Assembly (NCBI GenBank): GCA_032185465.1
Contig: GCA_032185465.1_4549.1
Length of the DNA: 40,535 nucleotides
Direction: 5' to 3' (one strand)
Source: a phage
Part shown: piece by piece, positions 1-40,535 of the stretch
Numbering within the stretch: position 1 is the first letter of the stretch
Layout of the letters: each line of letters begins with the position of its first letter
Notes under the pieces: generated by a model
The model's input: only the letters and a program-made list of their open reading frames with translations
Databases searched by the model: none
What the model was told of the DNA's origin: nothing
Position numbers and translations under genes: made by a program

Positions 1-40
1 AAAAAACCCCTCAAGCACCCGAAGGCACCCAAGGGGTTTC
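1..40 (-). terminator. T-phi-like rho-independent late terminator after the capsid gene
   Basis: Minus strand reads GAAACCCCTTGGGTGCCTTCGGGTGCTTGAGGGGTTTTTT: GC-rich hairpin with G-U pairs followed by T6, directly after the capsid ORFs. Closely resembles the T7 T-phi terminator as I recall it. Confidence 0.85.
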
Positions 41-42
41 AA

Positions 43-333
43 TTAGTTTGTGAACGAAACGTTGAATGACCTAACGGTAGACCCGTCATATCCAACAGTT
101 ACAAGACCTGTCACAGCATCGGTGGCCTTGAAGTAGAGACTTGAAGTTCTACGAGAGTAGCTCACACCATCCGGCATGGTTACATCCAGCAGAGACCAGT
201 CGGTCACATCTGCCAGCTCAGGGAAGTCAACCTTAATACTGACACCCACTGAGGACTCCAAGGTTTCCAAGGTAGGACCCTCAGTAGAGAGAGTCCTGAA
301 GGTCATTAACCCGCTGCTGCTGGACTGAAAACC
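43..333 (-). CDS. minor capsid protein 10B C-terminal extension, reached by -1 frameshift from gene 10A
   Basis: ORF 43..306 is in the -1 frame relative to 10A and stays open back to a GGTTTTC heptamer (plus 327-333) seven codons before the 10A stop. T7 makes 10B by -1 frameshifting at the end of 10A. The frameshift itself is inferred. Confidence 0.55.
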   Translation of the reverse strand, partial: GFQSSSSGLMTFRTLSTEGPTLETLESSVGVSIKVDFPELADVTDWSLLDVTMPDGVSYSRRTSSLYFKATDAVTGLVTVGYDGSTVRSFNVSFTN

Positions 334-1355
334 AGTGCGCCAGCCGCTTCAGGACGCAGACCACCGTGACCCATAGCGTATTTACCAACAATCAGGTCGC
401 CCTGAGCATCGACGTCACGGTCACGTTCCAGCGCCAAGTCACGCAGCTTAACAGTACCCACAGCAGAACGGTGAGAGAACAGGCCCACAACGTTGTCCAG
501 AGCAACTTTAACATCACCAGTAGCGGTAGCTGGGAATGCGTGCTTCTGACCAGTCGCAATAGTGATGCCATCAGCACCACGAGTTTCACCAGCACCGCCC
601 TGAGTCAGGTGTGGAACTTCAACAACAACAAAGCCCATTACGTTACGGATGTTACCAGTCTCCGGGTCAATCAGCGCAGCATAGTTAGCAGCATTCGGCA
701 TCAGAGCAGCGAGGATTGCAGAGTAGTTGTCAGGCGTGGTGTAGAAGTAACGGTCGCCAGCAGGAACGTAGTTGGAGGTCAGCTTCGCACGAGCAATGGT
801 AAGTTGCCCAATGATTGCTTCACCCAGTTTAGCCGGGGTGTTGAGGTCAGCTTTCTTGCCTACTTCAAGTACGGACGCAGTGCCAAGACCAGCAATATTC
901 TCGTTGGATGCAGCTGGTAGGTTACACAGGATAGCCATTTCAGCCAGAACAGCACCATCAGCAGCGATAGCCAGAGCTTCACCCAACTGATTGGAATATT
1001 CGCCAGCCACGTCATAGTGGTTCATCGCGTCTTCAATGTCGAAAATCATCACATCGGCAGTCAGCAGACCATCAATGGTAATCACTTTCTCGGTATGTTT
1101 GATACCTTTACGCTTATCGGACAGTCGCTCACCCGGAGCCAGATACACACCAGAGGTGCGACCCATGACCGGGAACTGAGCAGACTTACCGTTCTGAATG
1201 GTACGGACAATATGCTTGTCAGCAGTTACAGAGCGGCGAGTGAATGCGGTCAGGACTTCACCAGCAAATACCTTCAGGAACAACGCCAGAGCGTCGGAAC
1301 TGGATTTGCCTTTACCTTGGTCTGTACCAATTTTCTGACCCGGAACGTTTGCCAT
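306..1355 (-). CDS. major capsid protein (T7 gp10A-like)
   Basis: 349 aa; near full-length similarity to recalled T7 gp10A (KHTEKVITIDGLLTADV, AILAALMPNAANYAALIDPE, HRSAVGTVKLRDLALER, KYAMGHGGLRPEAAG). ATG at 1355. Confidence 0.97.
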   Translation of the reverse strand: MANVPGQKIGTDQGKGKSSSDALALFLKVFAGEVLTAFTRRSVTADKHIVRTIQNGKSAQFPVMGRTSGVYLAPGERLSDKRKGIKHTEKVITIDGLLTADVMIFDIEDAMNHYDVAGEYSNQLGEALAIAADGAVLAEMAILCNLPAASNENIAGLGTASVLEVGKKADLNTPAKLGEAIIGQLTIARAKLTSNYVPAGDRYFYTTPDNYSAILAALMPNAANYAALIDPETGNIRNVMGFVVVEVPHLTQGGAGETRGADGITIATGQKHAFPATATGDVKVALDNVVGLFSHRSAVGTVKLRDLALERDRDVDAQGDLIVGKYAMGHGGLRPEAAGALVFSPAAAG

Positions 1356-1457
1356 ATGATAATTCTCCTATTCAATTGAAAGATAAAGTTTATTACTTAC
1401 TGTATGCCCAATCCGTATGGACTGAAGTAATAGGGAAACCTTGAGTCTTTCTCTTGG

Positions 1458-1480
1458 TCTCCCTATAGTGATAGTTTAGT
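1458..1480 (-). promoter_or_regulatory. phage RNAP promoter (phi10-like): ACTAAACTATCACTATAGGGAGA
   Basis: Minus-strand 23-mer with T7-type CACTATAGGGAGA initiation region, directly upstream of the capsid gene. Confidence 0.85.
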
Positions 1481-39954: not shown

Positions 39955-40520
39955 TAGTCTCTCCCAATGTCGGACATCATGTTGTAGCGACCAGTATCCA
40001 TCTCGTATTCCATGACCTGCTGATAGAGTTCTGCTTCCTGCTCACGAAGGTACAGTTCAGACTCTGGGCTACCGAAGAACTTAGCGTTGAACTCACGGCT
40101 AGCTTTAGTGACGATGTAGTCCCTGAAGACCACAGGCATCTCTGAGAATGGCTTCATCTCCACAAGCTCTACCGTGATAGGGTCGGTGAAAGTGGTCGAC
40201 TGAGTGGACAGGTCGTACAGGTATCCACCCATGTTGCTGTAGTAGCTGGTGGCCCCAGCGGTCATTACACGAAGGTATGACGGCAAGAATCGAATCCTAT
40301 TGTCTTGGACATCAGGTGTCAGGACAGCAGCTTCGTTGATGTTAAAGTTCCAGCCTTTAGCTTGGACCTGACGATTGACACGATGCAGGATACGTTGAGC
40401 GTTCGAGACGTCAGCGTTCCCCTCGTCAAGCTGTAGGACTGCTGGTTCACCTATAGCAGCTAACATATCGTTGATGGCATCTAAGTCATCGTTAGCGTTC
40501 AGTGGAATGTATTGAGCCAT
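39954..40520 (-). CDS. tail tubular protein A, gp11-like
   Basis: 188 aa; AINDMLAAIGEPAV, ILHRVNRQVQAKGWNFN, FRDYIVTKASREFNAKFFG, MEYEMD colinear with T7 gp11. AAGGAGG upstream near the window end. Confidence 0.95.
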   Translation of the reverse strand: MAQYIPLNANDDLDAINDMLAAIGEPAVLQLDEGNADVSNAQRILHRVNRQVQAKGWNFNINEAAVLTPDVQDNRIRFLPSYLRVMTAGATSYYSNMGGYLYDLSTQSTTFTDPITVELVEMKPFSEMPVVFRDYIVTKASREFNAKFFGSPESELYLREQEAELYQQVMEYEMDTGRYNMMSDIGRD

Positions 40521-40535
40521 AGGCCCTCCTTAAGC

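Follow-up and report, generated by a model that had tools for sequence, protein, structure and literature searches.

In bacteriophage T7 the capsid gene 10 yields two proteins, 10A and, by a -1 frameshift at the sequence GGTTTTC, a longer product 10B which makes up about 10% (PMC1635266). The frameshift goes back to the work of Condron, Atkins and Gesteland (1991), as summarized in PMC5009743 and PMC1635266. In the review by Atkins et al. the T7 site is listed as a variant of the X_XXY_YYZ type of slippery sequence in which X_XX is G_GU (PMC5009743). The same review reports that the sequence CCCC in the transcription terminator, more than 200 nt downstream, affects frameshifting at the T7 site, and calls this effect unexplained. 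The extension which T7 obtains in this way is a low-complexity charged tail of 56 residues, giving a 10B protein of 398 aa.

Phage T3 also makes a 10B protein by -1 frameshifting, and there the extension is Ig-like (Fraser et al., 2006, as described in PMC5009743 and PMC13320782); it has been remarked that the extension of T7 "curiously" is not (PMC5009743). Among the Ig-like decorations known from phages several are appended via programmed frameshifting (PMC5009743). In K1F, the type phage of Kayfunavirus, gene 10b is described as a -1 frameshift product, and fusions of it with GFP and with foreign Ig-like adhesins have been displayed on a subset of the capsid subunits (PMC6277420; PMC13370021).

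The window analysed here is a stretch of 40,535 nucleotides of phage DNA (contig GCA_032185465.1_4549.1). It represents a Kayfunavirus, a K1F-like relative of T7, with the genome in reverse orientation, and it is a circular permutation of that genome with the cut placed after the terminator of gene 10 and before gene 11 begins. The minus strand of the first 1.4 kb is 99% identical to Escherichia phage LS3, the nearest relative, and the same 1.4 kb shares 91-96% identity with many further phages of Kayfunavirus. Upstream of gene 10A there are a phage promoter of the T7 type and a strong ribosome-binding site; the product of the gene matches the Pfam family PF21703 (Gp10A-like, E 8.7e-106), and its homologues in LS3, Peacock and other phages are labelled "major capsid protein". 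The features discussed in the following are collected in Table 1.

Table 1. Features at the end of gene 10 in the window, with the basis for each assignment
Feature	Coordinates	Strand	Basis
Gene 10A, major capsid protein, 349 aa, 36.4 kDa	306..1355	minus	ORF list, Pfam, annotation of relatives
Overlap, -1 frame open while 10A is still read, 13 codons	306..348	minus	Frame translations
Slippery heptamer G_GTT_TTC, codons Val342-Phe343, putative -1 shift site	333..327	minus	
10B-specific coding sequence, 94 codons (QSSSSGLMTFR...SFTN) + TAA 45..43	43..327	minus	-1 frame
Linker, extension residues 1-20, predicted disordered	268..327	minus	AlphaFold2 pLDDT ~48
10A stop codon TAA	308..306	minus	
87-codon ORF, ATG start	43..306	minus	ORF list
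ATG overlapping the 10A stop (TAATG), read as internal Met of 10B	304..306	minus	ATG not conserved; no SD
Candidate stimulator hairpin AGGACUCUC-N6-GAGGGUCCU, 29 nt 3' of heptamer	274..297	minus	Folding; not supported
Ig-like seven-strand beta-sandwich, extension residues 21-94 (74 residues)	46..267	minus	Predicted structure
T-phi-type transcription terminator, 17-bp hairpin (40..3), UUCG loop, U-run	1..40	minus	dG -25.2 kcal/mol, z -5.2; terminator scan

On the minus strand gene 10A ends with CTG GTT TTC AGT CCA GCA GCA GCG GGT TAA, that is, six sense codons follow the TTC of the heptamer before the stop. The distance between the two start positions (1355-306 = 1049 = 2 mod 3) places the 87-codon ORF in the -1 frame of 10A. 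This frame is open from 348 to 46, over 101 codons, and is bounded by TGA at 351..349 and TAA at 45..43; when the region is shuffled by mononucleotides, an open frame of 100 codons arises in 1.1% of the cases. The overlap with 10A is the only stretch where a -1 shift yields a long product, and GGTTTTC is the sole slippery motif in it able to do so. A shift at the heptamer would give a 10B protein of 437 aa (343 + 94) and 46.0 kDa, which is 9.6 kDa above 10A, and the 94 new residues would take the place of the last 6 residues of 10A. The predicted junction peptide spanning the shift site is YAMGHGGLRPEAAGALVFQSSSSGLMTFR.

An earlier sequence-only reading had proposed a programmed 10A/10B frameshift like that of T7. 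It pointed to the ORF at 43..306, to a GGTTTTC heptamer seven codons before the 10A stop and to a -1 frame open from that heptamer onwards. We could reproduce both the coordinates and the frame of the ORF; the heptamer was found in register; and the -1 frame proved to be open already from 348, upstream of the heptamer. The extension had been put at about 93 aa and described as longer than in T7. A long extension was indeed found, 94 residues by exact count and not 93, and the comparison was right (94 residues against 56).

The comparison with T7 which that reading made also holds in detail, since the heptamer, its register and its homologous position are the same in the two phages. In both it lies in a conserved ...GHGGLRPEAAGA(L/V)VF motif, also given as ...AAGA(L/V)VF; the motif reads GHGGLRPEAAGAVVF in T7 and GHGGLRPEAAGALVF in the window. 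The T7 capsid gene ends with GTG GTT TTC AAA GTG GAG TAA TG, so the TAATG is common to T7 and the window, and in both the -1 frame ends just before a T-phi terminator which carries CCCC. The spacing differs: the 10A stop comes six codons after the TTC in the window and three in T7, and the shift site is 290 nt from the terminator in the window and 179 nt in T7. The extension itself also differs; in the window it consists of a linker and a predicted Ig-like domain, whereas the T7 tail is not Ig-like. What follows the shift site in the window is an unrelated module, with a predicted Ig-like fold, and not a lengthened T7 tail, a point which the earlier reading missed.

The junction was compared in about 70 loci, taken from annotated phage records and from viral contigs found by a profile search with the extension. 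The profile was needed to obtain most of the contigs: with a single sequence the viral-contig scan gave only 2 loci, with the extension profile 58. NGTTTTC is found in register in all of the roughly 70 relatives surveyed except T3. Nearly all have GGTTTTC; the JA10 group has CGTTTTC and one locus AGTTTTC. Ahead of the heptamer the -1 frame is already open in all surveyed loci, again except T3, and the 10A stop lies 16, 19, 22 or 25 nt past the start of the heptamer depending on the locus.

The Val codon of the heptamer is GTT in 67 of 67 distinct sequences, whereas the 7 other columns with an invariant Val in the last 180 codons use 2-4 codons each. The Phe codon is likewise TTC in 67 of 67, but only the invariance of GTT is informative because TTC is the generally preferred Phe codon anyway. 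GTT is the only Val codon which creates UUU in the -1 frame. As judged from these alignments, the slip-competent GTT is conserved at the nucleotide level beyond what the amino acid requires.

A second line of evidence comes from the extension. Compared with Peacock, the substitutions in it are distributed 12/12/35 over the three codon positions of the -1 frame, i.e., with a bias for the third position. The dN/dS ratio in the -1 frame is 0.15-0.36, and the other two frames contain 6-7 stops. These substitution patterns indicate that the extension is under purifying selection, and in the -1 frame only. The capsid body is more constrained (dN/dS <= 0.095); the body is outpaced by the extension about 3.5-fold in rate of evolution, and synonymous divergence is higher in the extension by a factor of two to four. 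In PE3-1 the extension has 1 difference from the window in 264 nt, whereas the capsid body is 6.3% different. A near-identical extension on a diverged body points to exchange of the module by recombination.

The structure predicted for the folded part of the extension is a two-sheet beta-sandwich which is Ig-like in the broad sense (E-set-like), and the prediction is a confident one. Its structural neighbours include the C-terminal Ig domain of lambda gpV and a Hoc-like protein, and the closest viral model is that of a 76-residue ORF called "minor capsid protein" in Pectobacterium phage PP81. Sequence comparisons reach less far. None of the extensions of the window, KP32 and CR8 has a Pfam match at E <= 10. 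In a sequence search against solved structures the extension alone gave chance-level matches only (best E 0.027) and the extension profile gave none. An exhaustive profile search also reached proteins outside the T7-like phages, with weak matches to the tandem repeats of large proteins of the Big_2, Big_3_5, Big_1/invasin and BACON kinds.

The module is present in 454 phage records, mainly of Kayfunavirus, Przondovirus (KP32-like), Caroctavirus (CR8) and Ningirsuvirus (JA10), and 24 residues are invariant across groups of extensions which are only 37-46% identical. Its PHROG family, 7473, is listed with "unknown function", and our search of the literature found no published fold or function for this module. 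The Ig-like assignment of this family, which follows from the predicted structure, is a by-product of the analysis.

T3 is the closest described parallel with regard to the product. There, as is proposed for the window, some ribosomes shift by -1 shortly before the capsid gene ends, and a minority of the subunits thereby gains a single Ig-like domain about 90 residues long. However, the T3 shift site is C_CCA_AAG and not G_GTT_TTC, the T3 terminator is not adjacent to the 10B stop as it is in the window, and the T3 extension belongs to a Pfam family (Big_2, PF02368, E 4.5e-10), whereas the module of the window has none. Homology between the two domains is not supported: the single BLASTP match was short and out of register, and the hhalign probability was 0.2%. 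The situation in K1F is the reverse. It has the same heptamer as the window and a terminator of identical sequence, but between them lies a short T7-type tail of 48 residues (...EETLTPQQKAARTRAANRADKLAESNN; ending ...TRAANRADKLAESNN) and not the Ig-like module. As K1F belongs to Kayfunavirus, the module must have been exchanged within the genus. Taken together, the sequence comparisons point to three mutually unrelated extension modules in one slot: the tail of T7 and K1F, the Big_2 domain of T3 and the module of the window. The window would thus combine a T7-type site with a third kind of cargo, which according to the structure prediction is Ig-like.

Surface-exposed Ig-like beta-sandwiches are also found in T4 Hoc, in the C-terminal domain of lambda gpV and in the capsid frameshift product of Lactobacillus phage A2. 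These have other carrier proteins and other shift sites, and a sequence relationship to the window was not detectable.

Annotation of the nearer relatives varies. Escherichia phage Peacock (MK903279) is 91% identical to the window, 78% in the extension, and its record has a joined -1 frameshift CDS at the same junction. Citrobacter phage CR8 (HG818824), with an extension 46-49% identical, also has a joined -1 frameshift CDS at the same junction, with the tttt run marked. The CR8 GenBank record carries the remark "matches in mass spectrometry analysis", which is the only experimental hint for this family of extensions; the genome announcement of CR8 and CR44b does not mention the frameshift. 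LS3 is annotated with a separate "hypothetical protein" rather than a fusion.

The heptamer is non-canonical in its first three nucleotides (G_GU) and should therefore be weak on its own, and we looked for stimulatory elements around it. The canonical arrangement of the dnaX, IS and retroviral sites, an X_XXY_YYZ heptamer with a structure 5-9 nt downstream, does not describe the window, where X_XX is G_GT and the nearest hairpin is 29 nt away. A Shine-Dalgarno-like stimulator upstream, of the dnaX type, was rejected as a conserved element: in the aligned junctions, read by eye, the G-rich Ala-Gly-Ala codons vary among the relatives (AGGAGC, GGTGC, GGCGC) and form no consistent motif. The 134 nt after the heptamer fold no better than shuffled sequences (z = -0.96). 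With RNAalifold the consensus fold of 16 Kayfunavirus-type sequences shows almost no covariation (term -0.78). The hairpin at 297..274 is paired in 90% of the cells in 16 relatives, but compensatory changes are lacking and it does not exceed the shuffles. As a stimulator it is not supported, though the variation among these relatives is too small to refute it.

The KP32-type phages present a different picture. They have an 18-bp hairpin 19 nt past the heptamer with two compensatory pairs. The number of cells in which both partners have changed is 24, compared to 9.8 +/- 2.1 in shuffles (0 of 500 shuffles reach this value), and 98.9% of the cells are paired, compared to 35-52% when the partners are slid.

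The other candidate is the terminator. In the window its hairpin begins 2 nt past the 10B stop and its CCCC is at 36..33. A terminator bearing CCCC follows 6-14 nt after the -1-frame stop in nearly all GGTTTTC loci, whichever module is present, and the distance from site to terminator in these loci ranges from 152 to 325 nt. A partner for CCCC was sought by eye as a run of G near the site: there is GGGGG in T7 and GCGGGTT in the window, and nothing comparable in K1F, KP32 and CR8. That the downstream terminator acts as a distal stimulator in the window phage is speculative. We also considered a wider reading, in which nature has already exchanged the inserts between the two elements that would matter for the distal stimulator of T7 gene 10: the G_GTT_TTC site and the CCCC-bearing hairpin are retained together across three unrelated modules. 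Provided that the terminator acts here as reported for T7, site and terminator alone would hold the stimulatory information, and the RNA between them could be replaced completely. In this reading the RNA coding for the linker may also stimulate at an unusually long spacing, through the 18-bp hairpin in KP32-type phages and a weaker one in the window, and in the clade of the window re-initiation at the TAATG might yield some free Ig-like protein. As a whole this combination seems rather unlikely to us.

The model which in our opinion very probably describes the locus is that one gene 10 mRNA gives both 10A and a frameshifted 10B with an Ig-like domain on the virion. The majority of the ribosomes would decode G_GUU_UUC in frame and terminate to give the 349-aa 10A. 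A minority would slip back one nucleotide on the heptamer; the tRNA-Phe would re-pair from UUC to UUU and the tRNA-Val, imperfectly, from GUU to GGU. The slipped ribosomes would then decode CAG UCC AGC ... and stay in the -1 frame until they meet the TAA at 45..43. In the resulting 437-aa 10B, residues 1-343 of 10A would be joined through a flexible linker some 20 residues long to the 74-residue Ig-like beta-sandwich. Since 10B would co-assemble with 10A, a fraction of the subunits would show the Ig-like domain outside the head. The analysis itself shows the site and the frames with their conservation, the selection on the -1 frame as coding sequence, the want of a conserved start of its own and the predicted fold. 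That the shift occurs, that it does so at a level of about 10%, and that 10B is incorporated and exposed on the surface, we infer by analogy with T7, K1F and CR8; most likely a minority of the capsid subunits carries the Ig-like domain on the virion surface. The domain would probably be a weak adhesion module for glycans or surfaces, although an adhesive function is speculative.

An ORF which starts with an ATG at the stop codon of the gene before it could of course also be a gene of its own. According to this alternative, re-initiation at the TAATG, where ATG and stop share one base, would give a free Ig-like protein of 9.4 kDa which could decorate the capsid or have a role elsewhere. The window shares the overlap with LS3 and PE3-1, a distinct "hypothetical protein" or "minor capsid protein" ORF is what most GenBank records show, and Vibrio phage Peru-2 encodes an Ig-like minor capsid protein separately (PMC13320782). 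However, among the about 70 loci only T7 and the small clade which the window forms with LS3 and PE3-1 have an ATG at the 10A stop, and in T7 the same TAATG accompanies a 10B which is known to be a frameshift fusion (PMC1635266). In Peacock, U8, NS1, EcpYZU01, Kc166A and other Kayfunavirus loci the ATG is replaced by ACG, and in KP32-, CR8- and JA10-type loci it is absent, with the peptide conserved through its position. The earliest codon at which the -1 frame could be started lies anywhere between 8 and 33 in the relatives, often inside the folded domain, and many loci are without any ATG. A Shine-Dalgarno sequence was not found before the ATG of the window: the anti-SD pairing energy is -2.8 kcal/mol, compared to a background median of -2.9 and a median of -7.6 for the real long ORFs of the window. 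With the ATG unconserved and no ribosome-binding site, the 87-codon ORF is best read as the fused extension and not as an independent, translationally coupled gene. A separate gene would also leave the invariance of GTT and the always open -1 frame upstream unexplained. We therefore find it improbable, although the TAATG in the clade of the window would also permit some termination-reinitiation. The frameshift put forward by the sequence-only reading is in turn favored by the T7-homologous site, its conservation, the invariant GTT and the non-conserved ATG.

The same fusion protein could in principle be made without any ribosomal event, namely if the phage RNA polymerase inserted an extra U in the U4 run and so brought the extension in frame in a subset of the mRNAs. 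The heptamer does contain a run of four T, and slippage there would give the same protein sequence as a ribosomal frameshift at this site. Efficient transcriptional slippage requires homopolymer runs much longer than four, and the T7 event at the identical sequence is classed as ribosomal. The classification is that of the review by Atkins et al. (PMC5009743), and we consider slippage at the window site very improbable. Still less credit can be given to the idea that the downstream ORF is a non-functional remnant, or a chance frame between the capsid gene and the terminator. The 10B protein of T7 is dispensable, the extension is the fast-evolving part of the protein, and in one relative (L029) the C-terminal half of the domain has been lost together with the terminator. 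But an open frame of this length is expected by chance only about once in a hundred cases, and the dN/dS values with the strong third-position bias, the 24 invariant residues, the confidently predicted beta-sandwich and the 454 records from several genera are not what a remnant would leave. Judged by the signal of selection, a non-functional ORF appears to be effectively refuted.

It should be noted that the T7-type gene 10 frameshift of the window, the reading we prefer, is real but ordinary, an arrangement already known, and that the basic picture, known since 1991, is unchanged. What the locus adds concerns the cargo and the two elements flanking it. The pairing of site and terminator across unrelated inserts offers a comparative handle on the long-range effect in T7. 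A natural, exchangeable and probably surface-exposed Ig-like cassette in the stretch from shift site to terminator suggests a slot in which insertions are tolerated, and phages of Kayfunavirus, Przondovirus and related genera serve in therapy and display work. The cassette may also help to determine how well such phages adhere to mucus or surfaces.

There is finally a consequence for annotation. Most of the records inspected either give the module as a shortened ORF of its own, named "hypothetical protein", or label it "minor capsid protein" with no sign of the fusion. The wandering start codon and the lack of a Shine-Dalgarno sequence explain why gene finders call truncated ORFs of 54-87 aa here, and many of these calls are without the first strand of the domain. 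Re-annotation as the frameshift-derived C-terminus of 10B with a predicted Ig-like fold would correct a widely mis-annotated ORF.

The hairpin found in the linker-coding stretch of the KP32-type loci (L006, L013, L014 and L033-L073 of the comparison) is a candidate for a frameshift stimulator, with a spacing to the shift heptamer that is unusually long. It is paired in 98.9% of the cells of alignment A4, and the compensatory pairs are AU<->GC and CG<->UA exchanges. These pairs need coupled non-synonymous changes, Thr to Val or Ala together with Ser to Pro. The number of double-change cells observed was reached in none of 500 shuffles.

The shift site and the terminator that follows the 10B stop codon both have variants. 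In the viral contig IMGVR_UViG_2974609768_000001 (L032, 599..915) AGTTTTC takes the place of GGTTTTC, and the extension, of 103 residues, has a longer linker and is followed by a terminator of the same type with CCCC. In the three JA10-type loci (L007, L068, L074) the two elements depart jointly from the common form: the shift site reads CGTTTTC and the terminator stem carries CCC, not CCCC.

The extension module itself appears, from nucleotide comparisons, to be moved between phages by recombination. Phage PE3-1 (L008/L017) differs from the window (43..1355) at only 1 of 264 nt in the extension versus 6.3% in the capsid body. In the other relatives the synonymous divergence of the extension is 2-4 times that of the body. 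The contig IMGVR_UViG_2974604219_000001 (L029, locus 860..990) has a deletion: half of the Ig-like domain, on its C-terminal side, is gone, the terminator is missing completely, and the gene 11 ribosome binding site is fused to what remains of the extension. This is either a natural knock-out, in which case the Ig-like domain would be dispensable, or an assembly error.

The window presents the phage genome in circularly permuted form, cut precisely at the boundary that separates the T-phi-type terminator from gene 11. Upstream of gene 10 there is a promoter for the phage RNA polymerase, the counterpart of phi10 in T7; a search of the window found an exact match to CACTATAGGRAG at this promoter only.

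Features of the gene 10 region and of the KP32-type linker
Feature	Position	Strand	Remarks
18-bp RNA hairpin	19 nt 3' of heptamer; columns 27-69, alignment A4		Within linker-coding stretch, Przondovirus-type phages
Window ends showing permutation	1..40 and 40400..40535	minus	Terminator at one end, gene 11 start at the other
Gene 11 ribosome binding site and start, GGAGGGCCTATG	final window bases	minus	MAQYIPLNAND...
Phage-RNA-polymerase promoter, ACTAAACTATCACTATAGGGAGAC	1457..1480	minus	Upstream of gene 10

The extension in OR786095.1 (hit H42), named 'Staphylococcus phage MBBL139', is 92.6% identical to that of the window; this phage therefore belongs to Kayfunavirus, and doubt falls on its host label. 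A KP32-type module (protein P0037) is encoded on a contig of 562 nt that is assigned to Flammeovirga agarivorans and is probably phage contamination. The capsid gene of phage 03_vB_Eclo_IJM (L012, OP272492) is annotated as four CDSs and further genes are fragmented as well, a picture that suggests sequencing errors. In phage U8 (L003, MT862763) the 349-aa 10A protein is labelled 'minor capsid protein 10B'.
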